Assembly: GCA_036477105.1 (NCBI GenBank) | Contig: JAZGCR010000202.1 | Span: 33-64,032, forward strand | Reading direction: 5' to 3' | Source: Nitrosomonadaceae bacterium | GTDB lineage: Bacteria; Pseudomonadota; Gammaproteobacteria; Burkholderiales; Nitrosomonadaceae | DNA: 64,000 nt | Part shown: in pieces, positions 33,258-39,966 of the stretch | Layout: every line of letters begins with the position of its first letter | Numbering within the stretch: the stretch's first letter is position 1 | Made by a program: the position numbers and the translations under genes | The notes under the pieces: generated by a model | What the model saw: only the letters and a program-made list of their open reading frames with translations | What the model was told of the DNA's origin: nothing | Database searches by the model: none

Positions 33258-33980
33258 TTAAGCAACTAACAATCTCCAAGCAGCTGCAGTGCATTGTGGC
33301 ACTTGGCCGTTTCCAATGGCTTTAAGTCTGTCCACTTTTGCGGCCATCCCATTCGCAATTCCGAATGCGTTGGGTGCGGGTAAGTCATCGAATACATTAT
33401 TTTCACATAGTCTCGCCACTGGTCGAATCTTTGTGTACCTTTGTCCTTGCGTATTGCTGTCGTGCCACCTTTCCAGTCTGTAGCTAACATCGTTGGCAAC
33501 AATCCAGATTCTGTCTCTTCGGTGATCTGCGCCAGCATAGGCAGCTGATACAACTCCCCATTTCGCATCGTACCCCATCGCGGCAAGGTCGCAGCATACT
33601 CTGTCGAGTCCTCGAATAGTGAGCATTGGGCTGTTTTCAATGAGTGCGTATCGGGGTCGTACTTCGCCAATGATCCTTGCCATTTCTGTCCACAGGCCGC
33701 TTCTTTCTCCGTCGAGCCCTTCGCCGGTGCCAATGGCTGATAGATCCTGGCAGGGAAATCCTCCAGAAACGACATCAACACGACCTCGCCAAGGTCTGCC
33801 GTCAAAGGTGCAAACGTCATCCCAAATCGGGAAAGGCGGGAGAAGTCGGTCATTCTGTCGCTGGATAAGTATCCCTGTGGGGTAGGGCTCAATTTCAACA
33901 GCGCAGATTGTTTGCCATCCAAGCAATTGGCCTCCGAGTATTCCTCCACCAGCGCCTGCGAATAATGCCAACTCATTCAT
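33258..33980 (-). CDS. DNA (cytosine-5)-methyltransferase, short form
   Basis: The motifs are in order: LFAGAGGG (I), GGFPCQDLS (IV), IENSP (VI), DHRRDRIWIVA (VIII), VDRLKAIGNGQVPQ (X). Confidence 0.8.
   Translation of the reverse strand: MNELALFAGAGGGILGGQLLGWQTICAVEIEPYPTGILIQRQNDRLLPPFPIWDDVCTFDGRPWRGRVDVVSGGFPCQDLSAIGTGEGLDGERSGLWTEMARIIGEVRPRYALIENSPMLTIRGLDRVCCDLAAMGYDAKWGVVSAAYAGADHRRDRIWIVANDVSYRLERWHDSNTQGQRYTKIRPVARLCENNVFDDLPAPNAFGIANGMAAKVDRLKAIGNGQVPQCTAAAWRLLVA
33266..33976 (-). CDS. second full-length ORF in the +1 phase of the methyltransferase gene (possible overprinted gene or frame-switch module)
   Basis: 236 codons are open in an alternative same-strand frame. The sequence is protein-like (MSWHYSQALVEEY.., RWGTMRNGE, LLPT..ATDWKGG, ELRMGWPQKWTDL). 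Whether it is expressed is unknown. Confidence 0.4.
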   Translation of the reverse strand: MSWHYSQALVEEYSEANCLDGKQSALLKLSPTPQGYLSSDRMTDFSRLSRFGMTFAPLTADLGEVVLMSFLEDFPARIYQPLAPAKGSTEKEAACGQKWQGSLAKYDPDTHSLKTAQCSLFEDSTEYAATLPRWGTMRNGELYQLPMLAQITEETESGLLPTMLATDWKGGTTAIRKDKGTQRFDQWRDYVKIMYSMTYPHPTHSELRMGWPQKWTDLKPLETAKCHNALQLLGDC

Positions 33981-34001
33981 TTACCTTCCCCGCTCGACCG
34001 T

Positions 34002-34023
34002 GGGCGGTTTTCTGGGCGGTTTT
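34002..34023 (+). repeat. arm-type repeat pair GGGCGGTTTT x2 (P arm candidate)
   Basis: GGGCGGTTTT occurs at 34002..34011 and 34014..34023. The same decamer pair recurs at 34210..34230. Confidence 0.6.
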
Positions 34024-34124
34024 ATGCGATTTGTGGAAGTTTGGTGTGAGCCGCTGTGAAAGCAACTTGTTTAGAATCATGCACTTATCTACACAGTGCT
34101 TCATAGCGCAGCACACCCGGTAGA

Positions 34125-34148
34125 GTTCGAGTCCCGTCCGGTCCGCCA
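34125..34148 (+). other. attP core candidate: tRNA 3'-end-like segment
   Basis: GTTCGAGTCCCGTCCGGTCCGCCA parses as T-loop TTCGAGT, 5-nt T-stem, 7-nt acceptor strand, discriminator G and CCA. No matching 5' acceptor, D or anticodon arms lie upstream. The integrase gene ends 87 nt away. Confidence 0.6.
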
Positions 34149-34209
34149 TTTCCTTTCTCTTATTATTCATGTACTTAGGCCTCCTTTCGTTGCCCAGTTG
34201 TCCCCCTCG

Positions 34210-34230
34210 GGGCGGTTTTGGGGCGGTTTT
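34210..34230 (+). repeat. arm-type repeat pair GGGCGGTTTT x2 (P' arm candidate)
   Basis: GGGCGGTTTT occurs at 34210..34219 and 34221..34230, just 3' of the integrase stop. Confidence 0.6.
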
Positions 34231-34234
34231 GGTT

Positions 34235-35323
34235 TTACCAGCCTTCCCCGGCGATCACTTTTCCCTCGAGCTTATGCTTGTCATCCTGCTGGCTATAGCC
34301 CTCTATCCATTCAGCATATATCCGGTAAAACATTTCCAGCGTGTGGCCCATCTGTTGGGCAGCTTTCCCTGGCTCAACACCAGAGGACAACAGTTCCGCG
34401 GCACGCGTGTGCCGGCATGTATAGGGGATCCGATAGGGGATGTTCAGAGCCTCGAGTGTGATTTGCCATTGCCGATTAAATACATCGGTGTCCAGGTGCG
34501 GACGGTCGAAGCTGTTAAGGAAAATGTAACTTTTCTTCCAGCGCGTCGTATGCGCCTTGATAATCTCTCGGGCCCAGGTAGGAATAAAAACGTATCGGGC
34601 TTCATGATTTTTGGTGCTGGCTTTCCGTTGCCGGCGTACTATCGATTTGTAGACATGGAATTGTTCTGCCTCCAGGTCGGACCACTGCAGGGCCAGTATC
34701 TCCCCGGGGCGCAAGCCGCAGCCAAACAGAATCGCAAAATATACCAGCGCCTGGCCGGTGGATGCACCGAGAATGGATTGGCGTTCTTTGCGGGTGAATC
34801 GCTGGATCTTGGGTTTCTGGTGTTTCTTTATCTTGATGGCGGCTACAGGGTTGCTGGTAATCATGCCGTCATCCATGGCCAGGGTGAATACGCCACGCAG
34901 GGGAATTAGGATGTTTTTCTTCGTCTTGTTACTGACTGGCGCCTTTTTCAACACTTTTTTGATATCGCTGGTGCGTATATCGGTGATCAGGTGGCCGCTG
35001 AAGGCCGGTAACCAGTATTTGTCCAGTGAGCTCTTATAACTGAGTAGGGTTGACCAGTCGGCGTCCAGGGTGTCTAGAAAGGTCTGTGCGAGGTTTCCCA
35101 TAAAATCTGTATTGGCGTCGGCATCATCGACATATAGAGGTAAGCCCAGGGCCATGCGCTGCTTTAGGTCGTCTCTGCGCCGGGTCGCTGCGGCAAGGTC
35201 AGCTTTGATATATGGATTGCCCTGGAGGGTTTCCGAATAGAAGAGTTTGCCCCCTCTCCAGATCCTGACGCGGATCCCATTTCCGTGGGGCTCGAGGCCT
35301 GTGGGCCACCGTTTCTTAGCCAT
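34235..35323 (-). CDS. int: tyrosine integrase
   Basis: 362 aa. The C-terminal catalytic pattern ..GLRPGEILALQW.., ..YTCRHTRAAELLSSG.., ..MGHTLEMFYRIYAEW.. fits R..HxxR..Y. It is adjacent to the attP candidate. Confidence 0.9.
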   Translation of the reverse strand: MAKKRWPTGLEPHGNGIRVRIWRGGKLFYSETLQGNPYIKADLAAATRRRDDLKQRMALGLPLYVDDADANTDFMGNLAQTFLDTLDADWSTLLSYKSSLDKYWLPAFSGHLITDIRTSDIKKVLKKAPVSNKTKKNILIPLRGVFTLAMDDGMITSNPVAAIKIKKHQKPKIQRFTRKERQSILGASTGQALVYFAILFGCGLRPGEILALQWSDLEAEQFHVYKSIVRRQRKASTKNHEARYVFIPTWAREIIKAHTTRWKKSYIFLNSFDRPHLDTDVFNRQWQITLEALNIPYRIPYTCRHTRAAELLSSGVEPGKAAQQMGHTLEMFYRIYAEWIEGYSQQDDKHKLEGKVIAGEGW

Positions 35324-36829: not shown

Positions 36830-37318
36830 CTAAAAAGGTATGTCGTCGTCAAAATCATCAAAACCACCCGCTGGTGCCTGCTGCGGTGCGGATTGCCGCG
36901 ATGCTGGGCGCGGTGCTTGTTGTGCAGGCGCCTGGCTATAACCCTGGTCTGGATAGCCACCACCCTGCTGACCACCTTGACTGCGGCTATCCAACATCTG
37001 CATTTCATTAGAGACAATCTCAGTGGTGTATTTATCCTGCCCAGATTGATCTTGCCACTTGCGCGTGCGTAGAGAACCTTCGATATAGACCTTCGATCCT
37101 TTACGCAGATATTGACCGGCTATCTCAGCCAATTTGTTAAAAAACACCACTCGGTGCCACTCCGTGCGCTCCTGGGCTTGACCCGTTTGCTTGTCCTTCC
37201 AGGTTTCCGAAGTGGCAACAGTGATATTAGTGACTGCACCACCAGAAGGCATATAACGTGTCTCTGGATCATTACCCAGATTGCCAATGAGAATGACTTT
37301 ATTAATGCCTCTGGCCAT
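36830..37318 (-). CDS. ssb: single-stranded DNA-binding protein
   Basis: [20 protein letters not shown]....G.AV....ATSE.W.DK..G...[12 protein letters not shown].., a Gly/Gln/Pro tail and the terminal DDDIPF. Confidence 0.95.
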
Positions 37319-38337: not shown

Positions 38338-38982
38338 CTATGCGGCTTTGTTGCTCAGTTGTTGGTATCTTTCATGTAGAATTTTAACGAATCGGTTAAC
38401 CTTCACCGCCAGATCCCGAATGTAATCTTCATCACGGTATATTCGTTTGGTGAAAAGATTGCAGCCAGGTGGTAGATCATTTCGGAAACTGGAAAAGTCC
38501 CACCAATCGCGTTCTGCGATCCACATGCCCCCCTGCACCTGTGGCATGTGTTCCTTGGGCATTTCATTTCGAATCATTGTCTTGATATGAATCGCGGGAT
38601 TTTCCGGACTCTTGATTTCCACACCGCCAGATGTGCCCACTAGGCCATCAGGTGAGCAGCCGACAAGTCTGTCATCCCGAAGAATGAAGCCAACCGGTTT
38701 CACTTTCTCTTCGCAATCAAAAGAGTAATCGGCCAGGGCCTTGGGTTCTTCGACGTTTCCCCATTCAAGGGATTTTGCTGATATATGTCGAACATTACCC
38801 GTTAATAACTGTGCCAGTAATTCGCACATGTATGATTCTGCGGTATCACTCATAATACCGGCTTCCTTATCCTTTTTTGACCTGGGCTCCGTCATAATGT
38901 CTTTGAATCGACTGGCAGACGGTACGCCGCATCGGTGTCGATGCCATTCCTCTGATCCCTGTTCGCAGTCGAGGATAATCAT
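38338..38982 (-). CDS. YqaJ/lambda-Exo-like recombination exonuclease
   Basis: It has the N-terminus ..QGSEEWHRHRCGVPSASRFKDIMT.. and the PD-(D/E)xK-like ..SPDGLV..GGVEIKSP... Confidence 0.8.
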   Translation of the reverse strand: MIILDCEQGSEEWHRHRCGVPSASRFKDIMTEPRSKKDKEAGIMSDTAESYMCELLAQLLTGNVRHISAKSLEWGNVEEPKALADYSFDCEEKVKPVGFILRDDRLVGCSPDGLVGTSGGVEIKSPENPAIHIKTMIRNEMPKEHMPQVQGGMWIAERDWWDFSSFRNDLPPGCNLFTKRIYRDEDYIRDLAVKVNRFVKILHERYQQLSNKAA

Positions 38983-39785
38983 TATTGATCACCATCGGCA
39001 CATTTGTTCAGCTTGTGGAGCATGCGGCGTCCTTCGCTTTCGCTAAACTGTGTCAGTCGTGCATGATCAGTACCGTGCACACCGTTAATGTATGTTAGAC
39101 AGTCTTCGAGAGACTTGCCGGTGATATCCATGCCCTCCTGAATTTTATTCAATGTGTCATCTGTAATACCAACGATCTGTTGTTGAGTTCTGCCGGCAGC
39201 ATTGCCGTCATCATCAAAGGTGGCAATGTTAAAAATCATATTGGTGAGATATCGCTGGCCGTAGGATACAGAGGATGCACTGGCGTGAATAGCGGTCTTG
39301 TTGGTGTTGCCTTGGGAACCGGCACCATCGAAAGGCAAGTCATATTCATAGTGTTTGGTGTGGCCGTCGATGTGCATTACATCACACATAACTACAATAT
39401 GATTTTGAGTTTTAGAAGACTTGTTCGAGAATGATAATGAAAACCCTTGTGCTGTGTAGACTGGGACCACAACAGCGTTGATGGCAGAGAGGTCTGAATA
39501 TCCACTGTGTGTATGATCATTCGTTTTATTTTTAAAAATTGGGCCAATATTAGCTTGGGTGCGAGACATCGCGCCGGCATAGGATTTTTCTGCCTCCTGG
39601 TCCATGATCTGGTTGCGTATTGCCAACAAGCGATCGACACGGTCGATATCGATGGTCGGATCAGATGCGGCATTGATAACCGCCTGCATAATATTGGTGG
39701 CTTGAGTCGGCGCATTGGCTAACTCTTGGCTGATCTCGGATTCTTGTTCCATTACCAATTCTGGCTTTGTTTCAGGGTCACTCAT
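38982..39785 (-). CDS. ERF-family single-strand annealing protein
   Basis: ..KNKTNDHTHSGYSDLSAINAVVVPVYTAQGFSL.. and ..ASSVSYGQRYLTNMIFNIATFDDDGN.. parallel P22 Erf (..YKYRSCEDIL.., ..SSYARKYCLNGLFGIDD..). An AAGGAG RBS supports ATG 39785 over the track start 39839. Confidence 0.7.
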   Translation of the reverse strand: MSDPETKPELVMEQESEISQELANAPTQATNIMQAVINAASDPTIDIDRVDRLLAIRNQIMDQEAEKSYAGAMSRTQANIGPIFKNKTNDHTHSGYSDLSAINAVVVPVYTAQGFSLSFSNKSSKTQNHIVVMCDVMHIDGHTKHYEYDLPFDGAGSQGNTNKTAIHASASSVSYGQRYLTNMIFNIATFDDDGNAAGRTQQQIVGITDDTLNKIQEGMDITGKSLEDCLTYINGVHGTDHARLTQFSESEGRRMLHKLNKCADGDQ

Positions 39786-39966
39786 GACTTGCTCCTTGTG
39801 GATGTTCTGAATAGGTTTTAGAGGCTTGCCTGCTTTCATCAGCGGTAGGCCACTTGGGTTCGCCGCGGTTTTCAGCTAATCGTTGTTTCTCTGCTTTAAT
39901 CTCATCAGTGCGATCGACCAACTCATCATTCCAGTGTGTCTCAAAAAGATCTGTGAGGTATTTCAC
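39778..39966 (-). CDS. hypothetical protein
   Basis: 62-aa ORF, coupled to neighbours. Confidence 0.45.
   Translation of the reverse strand: MKYLTDLFETHWNDELVDRTDEIKAEKQRLAENRGEPKWPTADESRQASKTYSEHPQGASHE

Follow-up and report, generated by a model that had tools for sequence, protein, structure and literature searches.

Two open reading frames at one methyltransferase locus

The window, i.e. the whole analysed stretch of 64,000 nucleotides, contains a cytosine C5-methyltransferase (C5-MTase) locus in prophage DNA. Two ORFs, here called A and B, are read from its minus strand in different phases (Table 1). The start codons of the two frames are 4 bases apart, B beginning 4 nt downstream of A and ending 8 nt before it. 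The overlap of 708 nt is twice as long as the runner-up among the same-strand overlaps of the window (357 nt). Long overlaps between genes on the same strand are regarded as rare for bacteria and phages, and annotation pipelines do not permit them. The coordinates and lengths of both ORFs in the original prediction were exact. All motifs listed there for A (FAGAGG, GGFPCQDLS, ENSP, HRRDRIWIV, IGNGQVP) and the peptides cited for B were found in the respective frames, and the ceiling of about 120 codons given for other same-strand overlaps agrees with the maximum of 357 nt measured elsewhere. The accompanying chance estimate for an open frame B, (61/64)^236, was crude, but its conclusion was matched by better null models. 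When the synonymous codons of A were permuted, frame B acquired 8.1 stops on average and remained open in 0 of 300 permutations. Among the single-base changes in the window, 33 are silent in A but stop B, and 34 are silent in B but stop A. A sequencing error or a pseudogene caused by an indel was ruled out because the same architecture recurs in hundreds of independent assemblies.

Table 1 Features of the overlapping locus (positions in the window; residues numbered within each ORF)
Feature	Position	Strand	Remarks
ORF A	33980..33258	minus	240 aa plus stop; putative alpha-like subunit; C5-MTase motifs I-VIII and X
ORF B	33976..33266	minus, +1 frame relative to A	236 aa plus stop; putative beta-like subunit
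Upstream 65-aa ORF	33973..34170	minus	TGA stop overlaps ATG of B (ATGA)
Shine-Dalgarno-like sequence GGGGAAGG	33984..33991	minus	read from sequence; could serve both starts
Start hub ATGAATGAG	33972..33980	minus	ATG of A at 33978-33980, ATG of B at 33974-33976; TGA stops in both other phases
A residues 1-166, catalytic large domain	33483..33980	minus	AF2 pLDDT ~85-93
Motif I	33945-33962	minus	in large domain of A
Motif IV, GGFPCQDLS	33738-33764	minus	in large domain of A
Motif VI, ENSP	33627-33638	minus	in large domain of A
Motif VIII	33498-33524	minus	in large domain of A
A residues 167-215, disordered tether	33336..33482	minus	pLDDT 35-44; unalignable in A2; always stop-free
A residues 212-239, C-terminal helix with motif X	33264..33347	minus	pLDDT 73-92; conserved in A2, A4
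Motif X, IGNGQVP	33297-33317	minus	near-invariant in A2, A4
B residues 1-95, leader	33692..33976	minus	pLDDT 35-48; predicted disordered; weakly constrained
B residues 96-157, conserved core KYDP..SLKTxQCSL..TLPRWGxMRNGE..ESG	33506..33691	minus	overprints motifs V-VIII of A
B residues 158-205, presumed target-recognition region GLLPTMLATDWKGG...	33362..33505	minus	pLDDT 77-84 from residue 161
B residues 206-222, motif IX-like ELRMGWPQKWTDLKPLE	33311..33361	minus	overlaps ...AAKVDRLKAI of A

ORF A matched Pfam PF00145 with residues 4-194 (E=1.7e-28), an alignment which stops short of motif X, and phrog_363 with residues 1-238 (E=1e-62). In the PDB, the sequence matched M.HaeIII and M.HhaI. A Foldseek search with the AlphaFold2 (AF2) model yielded M.HaeIII (E=6e-13), and the match was confined to the large domain of M.HaeIII and M.HhaI. 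The motifs I (FxGxG), IV (PCQ), VI (ENV/ENS) and VIII (RxR) occur in the order of C5-MTases on a Rossmann-type large domain. Motif X, with the pattern GNxVxP at the C-terminus, is present as IGNGQVP in a confidently predicted helix. Between motifs VIII and X, neither a target-recognition domain (TRD) nor motif IX was found in the A chain; residues 164-215 are unalignable, with 15% identity and pLDDT of 35-44. Without an alignable or structured interval between these motifs, A falls short of a complete one-chain enzyme. The linker varies from 33 to 155 codons, and its A frame contained stops in 0 of 74 loci, compared to 2.7 expected.

For B, no meaningful match was obtained with the single sequence in Pfam, NCBIfam and PDB sequences, with a profile of 108 sequences in the PDB, or with the AF2 model in Foldseek. 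It matched phrog_1008, labelled 'DNA methyltransferase', with E=5.6e-23. The leader is long and acidic; approximately the first 100 residues are unstructured according to AF2 and near-unconstrained at short range, as judged from the closest relative. In relatives, modules of the WPTPxAxDxKG type are variably inserted in the presumed target-recognition region. The AF2 confidence of the two chains is complementary. A is confident at residues 1-166 and 212-239 and disordered at 167-215, B is disordered at 1-102 and confident at 161-215.

The start region was compared in 146 loci. The hub sequence NNNAATGAG was present in 138 of them. B starts with ATG in 140 loci and with GTG in 6, and its start is thus better conserved than the start codon of A, for which ATG, GTG, TTG or an upstream ATG was found; AATGAG is near-universal. 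Asn2 of A is encoded by AAT in 71 of 72 loci (expected 0.46). With Glu3 of A encoded by GAG in 68 of 73 loci, Ser2 of B is nearly invariant, and its ATG at +4 is essentially so. GGAGG-like purine runs were seen at the matching position in most homologous loci, and upstream ORFs terminate at the TGAs of the hub. For the 65-aa ORF of the window, the ATGA overlap suggests translational coupling to B.

Conservation and selection in the two frames

Loci were collected by patterns of frame A only (GGFPCQD, ELALFAGA), without reference to B. Both frames were complete in 76 of the 77 loci with a complete 5' end; in the exception, L189, A is broken and B is still open. Over codons 2-163 of A, frame B had stops in 0 of 74 non-redundant loci, compared to 1.3 + 1.8 expected. 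The expectations were derived from synonymous shuffles and ranged from 1.3 to 2.7 stops per segment, and joint probabilities overstate independence, since the loci are related to one another. Two signs had been named in the original prediction, a +1 frame that is systematically open in homologues and constraint on the synonymous sites of A. Both were observed: no internal stop occurred in either frame of the 74 loci, and the synonymous sites of A include many frozen ones beside others that are saturated.

This constraint is uneven. From 118 conserved columns, 38 were at the saturation expectation and 19 used the same codon at a level of at least 0.75. The frozen sites coincide with conserved residues of B. 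Above the leader of B, they include F50 TTC, D54 GAT, F59 TTT and V68 GTT; above the core, N116 AAC and G136 GGG (74 of 74 loci each) and P118 CCA (0.88), and the frozen codons over the core recur in distant dual-frame relatives. A213 GCC, V216, D217 GAC and A221 GCC are frozen over the motif IX-like segment, whose amino-acid identity in B is 0.74 in distant pairs. A pairwise test for same-codon excess was confounded, as the control region, where the TRD of B lies over junk sequence of A, was also raised (~0.5 compared to 0.30 expected). It was replaced by the analysis per column and by comparison with the closest relative.

The closest relative is 93.7% identical. Its differences, counted at the first, second and third codon position of A, amounted to 4/2/14 for residues 1-100 of A, 6/0/0 for the linker and 0/1/3 for the C-terminus. 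Every difference in the linker is thus at the first codon position of A, equivalent to the third of B. The presumed target-recognition region of B shows 100% amino-acid identity in this relative, while the A linker changes. In the leader region, 14 of 20 differences leave the residue of A unchanged but alter that of B. Across the loci, variability peaks at the third position of A in A 2-163 and 223-238, and at the third position of B in B 206-222. These patterns indicate that purifying selection switches from A to B and back to A along the gene, in portions attributable to each frame.

Some B-like sequence arises automatically from conserved motifs of A; GGFPCQD, for example, reads EDFPAR in the +1 frame, and the +1 frame of a one-chain Vibrio phage enzyme shows SLKTS...TLPKSGTMRLG. 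Frame B could hence be open passively, by the constraint on A together with composition, and give no product. The original prediction had listed this reading too, as a by-product of constraint on A; judged by sequence evolution, it is refuted and retains next to no probability. Shuffles which keep the A protein and its codon set predict stops, B-specific codons are frozen where no stop is at stake, the linker evolves with the periodicity of frame B, and the ATG of B is conserved. Furthermore, the two one-chain enzymes used as controls, from Vibrio phage 1.052.A (beyond 120 aa) and KashFlow (gp113), have a closed +1 frame. With both frames conserved and open in the compared sequences, the overlap is neither chance nor by-product. 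Conservation, open frames and selection patterns all support B as a genuine overprinted gene, the first reading of the original prediction.

The full length of B was considered separately. As its leader is disordered and weakly constrained, only the C-terminal ~100-140 residues might be made from an internal start, as in the beta chain of M.EcoHK31I, and the leader would be outside the functional product. More distant relatives have shorter B ORFs, which begin 25-45 codons later, and Met137 is preceded by a GGGG run. We regard this as quite unlikely, because none of the 74 loci has a stop in the leader frame, compared to 1.3 stops expected, the ATG at +4 is essentially invariant with Ser2 nearly so, and Met137 occurs in only ~77% of the loci.

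Homologues of B and split phage methyltransferases

The original prediction had pointed, correctly, to hypothetical proteins beginning with MSW(L/H)YSQALVEEY. Homologues of B at E<=1e-3 number 4568 in the database, and many of them are exactly 236 aa long and labelled 'hypothetical protein'. A profile search with B returned 22,597 cluster representatives (clusters at 50% identity). Complete overlap of 0.7 to 1.2 kb was found across phages of Proteobacteria, and partial forms in actinophages and cyanophages. In the loci examined, B always occurs with an A-type gene; in the PGAP-annotated genomes of E. coli which were checked, frame A only is annotated. Judged by these sequence matches, the arrangement is conserved in thousands of phages and missing from Pfam and NCBIfam.

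B and its relatives matched the ORF which holds gp78 of Mycobacterium phage Pumbaa (E=5e-8 and 2e-11), to which the B core is homologous. This ORF and Geodirt gp4, both members of phrog_1008, run in frame into motif X. Both match the canonical methylase profile phrog_116 at positions 409-490, its C-terminal part, where the one-chain Vibrio phage enzyme has motifs IX and X. The second genes of these split methylases (Pumbaa gp79/gp78, Geodirt gp4) share the B core, LLPTPxAxDxKG modules and the EWMMGW motif. They are likewise in the +1 frame relative to the gene with motifs I-VIII and overlap its motif VI-VIII region. By sequence comparison, the core and the C-terminal half of B are homologous to the second gene of the split actinophage methylases. 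In contrast to the window, frame A of Pumbaa and Geodirt ends soon after motif VIII and motif X is located in the B-like frame, a layout resembling M.AquI; therefore the overlap is partial (~180 nt).

A segment of the LMGWPxxWT type had been predicted in B and noted as missing from A. It was identified as the motif IX-like element, which aligns with NPRLNAAFSEWMMGWEEGWVTDL of Pumbaa gp78. In B, ELRMGWPQKWTDL resembles motif IX and is aligned with EWMMGWEEGWVTDL of gp78, upstream of the in-frame motif X; profiles of Pfam and PDB miss this motif. Pfam scans of an artificial chimera, A(1-164)/B(165-219)/A(221-240), and of a fusion of Pumbaa gp79 and gp78 placed PF00145 on motifs I-VIII only. As motif IX is not detected by Pfam or PDB, its assignment rests on resemblance and on the chain of homology via the split phage enzymes.

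B might also be a real overprinted protein unrelated to methylation, e.g. an anti-defence factor or a regulator, and A alone a minimal methylase of low specificity. The lack of a Pfam, PDB or Foldseek match for B, its long acidic and disordered leader, and the phrog_363 profile covering A residues 1-238 are in line with this. We consider it unlikely, given that A has no structured or conserved sequence at the place expected for TRD and motif IX, that Pumbaa and Geodirt, in genes with a methylase annotation and a match to phrog_116, have B-like sequence fused covalently to motif X, and that B is always accompanied by an A-type gene in the loci examined.

A putative two-subunit enzyme

The locus probably encodes a two-subunit C5-MTase from fully overlapping genes, as a variant of the principle of M.EcoHK31I and M.AquI; that both frames are translated, that the chains assemble and that the complex is active and specific, we infer. 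A single mRNA would carry the start hub ATGAATGAG behind one ribosome-binding site, and ribosomes would initiate either at the start codon of A or at the ATG of B 4 nt downstream. Frame A would yield the catalytic large domain with motif I for AdoMet binding, the catalytic cysteine in PCQ of motif IV, and motifs VI and VIII. A meaningless, stop-free tether of ~50 residues would follow, and then the motif X helix, which may fold back onto the large domain. Frame B would yield the mostly disordered leader (~1-95), the core (~96-157), the variable target-recognition region (~158-205) and the motif IX-like helix (206-222). The last three would correspond to the DNA-recognising small domain of one-chain enzymes, which has no counterpart in A, and B would dock on A to form the active enzyme. 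Its role in the prophage would presumably be self-protection from host restriction.

Selection and predicted structure form a mosaic which runs A, B, A, and a splice in this order would give the canonical sequence of motifs I-VIII, TRD, IX and X. A single-chain methylase could thus arise if ribosomes moved from A into B by a +1 shift once past motif VIII and returned to A by a -1 shift ahead of motif X, near TTA_AAG. From this switching, which had been proposed in the original prediction, the placement of the segments proved right, but the frameshift mechanism is unsupported; we disfavour it as very improbable. Neither a conserved heptamer nor conservation of the A-to-B junction was found: any XXXYYYZ heptamer occurs nearby in 26 of 74 loci only, and nucleotide conservation drops to 30-40% right after codon 163. 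Neither the A linker nor the first 160 codons of B would have to remain open, but all 74 loci have them open, with both frames open to the gene end, and the ATG of B is conserved. The core of B, under its own constraint, lies on top of the indispensable motifs VI-VIII of A, so that one ribosome path cannot deliver both. Two separate polypeptides must therefore be made from the same nucleotides, one per frame. Likewise, motif IX of B and R-L-K-x-x-GN at motif X of A share nucleotides, so no junction preserves both. To our knowledge, two efficient frameshifts within one gene are without precedent.

Two known enzymes resemble the proposed alpha/beta arrangement. M.EcoHK31I of E. coli HK31 (Lee, Kam and Shaw 1995) is described as a C5-MTase requiring two polypeptides, whose beta chain with motif IX is encoded within the alpha gene in another frame; for beta to associate with alpha, its N-terminal part is required (PMC2836561, PMC3404938). 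As far as these descriptions go, the likeness is a second polypeptide in a different frame inside the first gene, as found here. The TRD of M.EcoHK31I is assigned to alpha, whereas the locus of the window has its variable recognition region in B, under B-frame selection, and junk in the inter-motif interval of A. Its beta is a short nested ORF; B of the window spans all of A from a start 4 nt later. M.AquI (Karreman and de Waard 1990; PMC3404938) is described as a natural two-chain C5-MTase split in the variable region, with motifs I-VIII on alpha and motifs IX and X on beta, encoded by essentially consecutive genes. Compared with this account, motif X is kept on the A chain of the window via the tether, and the overlap is total. 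The full-text literature search found M.EcoHK31I and M.AquI and no description of the family-wide overlap seen here.

If the proposed enzyme is real, methylases annotated from one frame would have their missing specificity subunits in thousands of 'hypothetical proteins' read from the other, and specificity predictions from frame A alone would be wrong. Naturally split C5-MTases would be on offer; such enzymes have been sought for targeted-methylation tools (PMC2836561). The locus would be a natural model for two proteins sharing one sequence with reciprocal stop-free passenger segments, and with start codons 4 nt apart it is a simple testable case of dual initiation.

On a wider scale, we see the balance as even on whether this is the standard architecture of a very large and ancient Dcm-like clade of phages and prophages. 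Its members would be obligate alpha/beta heterodimers, with beta encoded along the whole alpha gene in the +1 frame and both chains beginning at a common start and coupling hub, and with one stop-free passenger segment per frame (the tether of A, the leader of B) where the other frame works. In that case, no conserved overlap of same-strand genes known from bacteria or their viruses would be larger or longer, and DNA specificity, as TRD modules in frame B, could be swapped without touching the catalytic frame. Such a clade-wide system would at present be invisible to Pfam and NCBIfam.

Same-strand embedded genes with selection on both frames are known from phiX174, with B within A and E within D (review PMC8227390). 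These pairs have unrelated functions and are shorter than the overlap of 708 nt in the window and of >1 kb in relatives, and A and B seem to supply complementary parts of one enzyme. The HNH endonuclease hidden in the alternate frame of an actinophage methylase insertion (PMC11855218) was set aside as a different phenomenon.

Overlap and open reading frames of the methyltransferase gene

The two same-strand, out-of-phase ORFs of the original prediction are present in the window with the coordinates, lengths and ORF A motifs (FAGAGG, GGFPCQDLS, ENSP, HRRDRIWIV and IGNGQVP) that it had named. ORF B starts 4 nt downstream of the start of ORF A and ends 8 nt ahead of its end. The overlap of 708 nt is twice the runner-up same-strand overlap in the window (357 nt), in agreement with the claim that all others are about 120 codons or shorter. 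ORF A matched PF00145 of Pfam (E=1.7e-28, residues 4-194) and the phage family phrog_363 (residues 1-238). For B no match was obtained in Pfam and NCBIfam, neither of which has a model for it; among the phage families it matched phrog_1008, labelled 'DNA methyltransferase' (E=5.6e-23). After permutation of the synonymous codons of A, frame B gained a mean of 8.1 stops and was open in 0 of 300 trials.

The gene sits in the minus-strand early region of a prophage, and no tRNA genes were found across the 64-kb window. The G+C content of 33258-33980 is 52%, compared with 44.4% for the whole window, which fits a horizontally mobile, dual-coding-constrained sequence.

Coordinates of the overlapping ORFs, their start region and neighbouring features in the window
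Feature	Position	Strand	Remarks
ORF A	33980..33258	minus	240 aa
ORF B	33976..33266	minus	236 aa, +1 frame relative to A
Start hub	33972-33980	minus	contains both start codons
65-aa ORF	33973-34170	minus	between integrase and A/B gene; TGA stop overlaps ATG of B
246-aa ORF	34169-34909	plus	antisense to integrase gene; probably a shadow ORF
Integrase	34235-35323	minus	upstream of A/B gene
SSB	36830-37318		upstream of A/B gene
ERF recombinase	38982-39839		upstream of A/B gene
760-aa protein	24950-27232	minus	DUF4214 and RTX calcium-binding repeats; adjoins prophage-like region; probably host or cargo DNA marking the element edge

From IMG/VR and GTDB species genomes, 160 homologous loci were gathered by frame-B patterns, with hosts including Pseudomonas, Acinetobacter, Citrobacter, Pantoea, Burkholderia, Planctomycetota and Patescibacteria. 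Against ascertainment bias, 80 further loci were gathered by frame-A patterns alone (GGFPCQD, ELALFAGA). Both frames were complete and ended within a few codons of each other in 76 of the 77 A-ascertained loci with a complete 5' end; in the lone exception, L189, A is broken. The stop expectation was obtained by permuting each gene's own synonymous codons in 74 non-redundant loci, which is conservative because these codons are already biased. Per locus, 1.3 stops were expected in frame B over A codons 2-100, 1.8 over codons 101-163, and 2.7 in frame A along the linker of 33-155 codons that follows motif VIII; each time a stop was found in 0/74 loci. The +1 frame of these loci, found through A, is thus open throughout A codons 2-163. 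In the window, frame B would be closed by 33 single-base changes that leave the A protein unaltered, and frame A by 34 that are silent in B, so the mutational opportunity to shut either frame is large.

Selection along the gene and the shared start region

The A alignment showed conservation of residues 1-163 and of the final ~45, with an unalignable interval between them. B retained ESGLLPTPxAxDxKGG and NPxWxEWLMGWPxGWTDLKPLE, with varying numbers of WPTP-type modules in between. Nucleotide diversity was highest at the A third position in A 2-163 (0.33-0.50 vs 0.03-0.32 at positions 1 and 2) and A 223-238, and at the B third position in B 206-222 (0.27 vs 0.14 and 0.17). The nearest relative (93.7% nucleotide identity, 35 differing sites) differed in A codons 1-100 at 4/2/14 sites by A position 1/2/3, the 14 changing the B protein and leaving that of A unaltered. 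For the linker (A 164-205) the distribution was 6/0/0, all at the B third position, with four changes altering A and none altering B; for A 223-240 it was 0/1/3. Codon-position diversity and these differences thus give A, B, A as the order of the selected frame along the gene.

Same-codon frequencies of distant pairs were measured per column for 118 conserved A columns. They lay at the codon-usage expectation in 38, where synonymous sites are thus saturated, and reached at least 0.75 in 19. Examples of frozen columns are F50 TTC, D54 GAT, F59 TTT, V68 GTT, N116 AAC (74/74), G136 GGG (74/74), A213 GCC and D217 GAC. No stop codon is at stake in these choices, and every one fixes a conserved B residue. 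Frozen codons were found again in distant dual-frame relatives; in the one-chain control KashFlow, GGT and a +1 stop stand at such a site. A pairwise same-codon statistic was set aside as a constraint measure, being confounded and elevated in the control region too.

Vibrio phage 1.052.A (L253:1117-2181) encodes a canonical one-chain C5-MTase with motifs IX and X in frame. Throughout the motif VII region its codons equal those of the window (GAC CTT GCC .. GGG TAC GAT GCG), and a 120-aa +1 ORF reads SLKTS...TLPKSGTMRLG. This likeness may be the relic of a dual-frame ancestor or reflect an unexplained constraint at the nucleotide level.

NNNAATGAG is near-universal at the start region of the homologous loci. 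B starts with ATG in 140 and with GTG in 6 of 146 loci; the start codon of A varies (ATG, GTG, TTG, or an ATG farther upstream). Asn2 of A is AAT in 71/72 loci (0.46 expected) and Glu3 is GAG in 68/73. Both phases other than that of A contain a TGA within the start hub NTGAATGAG. An upstream ORF 45 codons or longer terminates on one of these in 54 of the 74 loci (among L165-L244), overlapping the start of A in 29 and the ATG of B in 25, which suggests termination-reinitiation coupling of translation into either frame. In L225:1462-2241 and L242:1462-2286 both protein starts lie farther upstream; A reads MEHKQLNTFHLFAGAGGG or MADKSGADGGLRELALF and B reads MTWSINN... or MSWLISRAL... in these relatives. 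The +4 start spacing is thus common, not obligatory.

Proposed two-subunit enzyme and split phage methylases

The locus is best explained as a two-subunit C5-methyltransferase; we infer translation of B, its assembly with A, and activity. Both chains would be translated from the single start hub. The alpha-like subunit would be A, in which a tether links motifs I-VIII to motif X, and the beta-like subunit B, with leader, core, target-recognition region (TRD) and motif IX.

AlphaFold2 (AF2) with a 101-sequence alignment gave pLDDT values for A of 85-93 (residues 1-166) and 35-44 (167-215), and a helix at 212-239 with 73-92. Foldseek aligned this model with M.HaeIII and M.HhaI over ~168 columns, the large domain only. 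For B (108 sequences) the values were 35-48 for residues 1-102, about 45-52 for 103-160, with two hairpins, and 77-84 for 161-215, so that the confidently predicted stretch of B falls on the predicted disordered stretch of A. No match of B to the PDB was obtained by sequence, profile or fold. The leader of B (~95 residues) is disordered and mostly unconstrained; it is retained in the clade of the window and shorter in distant relatives.

The original prediction had also considered programmed switching from A to B and back to A, yielding one chain. This reading is not supported: no conserved slippery site was found, nucleotide conservation collapses past codon 163, and the passenger segments remain open in both frames. 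Furthermore, the essential motifs VI-VIII of A overlap the conserved core of B, so that identical bases must be read in both frames, and the motif IX-like segment of B shares nucleotides with motif X of A (RLKxxGN), so no splice point leaves both whole.

The two-subunit reading would place A/B in a known kind, the nested-subunit C5-methyltransferases. For M.EcoHK31I the underlying two-polypeptide principle was shown experimentally; A/B would follow it. M.AquI is likewise a two-chain enzyme. Within this kind, A/B would be distinguished by its total overlap, its shared start hub, the placement of the recognition region on the nested chain and passenger segments kept free of stops reciprocally in the two frames. 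Full-text literature searches returned these two precedents and no description of a family-wide full-length A/B overlap.

In Mycobacterium phage Pumbaa, gp79 contains motifs I-VIII and then a stop. The +1 ORF with gp78 reads FPTSGMTRSGRLLPL...ESSLLPTPVATDAKG..., two more LxPTP modules, NPRLNAAFSEWMMGWEEGWVTDL and KIIGNGVV (motif X) in a single frame; gp4 of Gordonia phage Geodirt is organised likewise. The Pumbaa ORF was aligned with B of the window (E=5e-8) and with B of an Acinetobacter phage (E=2e-11, across core, modules and LMGW motif). The Pumbaa and Geodirt proteins matched phrog_1008 (E=1e-76 and 3e-96) and also positions 409-490 of phrog_116, a canonical methylase profile that the one-chain Vibrio phage enzyme matches across motifs I-X. 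Thus, the core and C-terminal half of B (residues ~107-222) is homologous to the variable region and the motif IX-like part of split phage methylases. Motif X is attached in two ways, on A by a stop-free tether in the window or on the B-like chain in Pumbaa and Geodirt.

[quoted passage not shown] For Microcystis phage Mwe-JY08 the record end cuts the A frame, which is overlapped by a 216-aa B-like +1 ORF.

Annotation and variants of the relatives

At E<=1e-3, the search with B returned 4568 database proteins, of which many are exactly 236 aa long, 45-90% identical and named 'hypothetical protein'. The B profile retrieved the representatives of 22,597 clusters built at 50% identity (13,822 with E<=1e-10), and the search with A at least 8000 PF00145 proteins. 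Since both retrieve thousands of proteins, gene callers pick either A or B, depending on the assembly. The choice is likewise inconsistent in annotated phage records; in RefSeq (PGAP) E. coli genomes with a relative (hits H76-H79) A alone is annotated. S9-5, ABMM1 and these E. coli genomes give frame A the name 'DNA cytosine methyltransferase', and Pseudomonas phage phPA-G lists frame B as a 'hypothetical protein'. The B-frame ORF itself carries the name methyltransferase in Gordonia phage Geodirt (gp4) and in Stenotrophomonas phage SOVA965.

Rotated frames were observed at three loci. In L083:2880-3941 and L158:78-1057, motifs I-VIII of A are fused in frame to the presumed TRD and the LMGW motif of B, and motif X is orphaned in the third frame; in L125:2982-3813 the leader of B is fused to motif X of A. 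These variants may reflect indels of the assembly, genes in decay or a genuinely different architecture.
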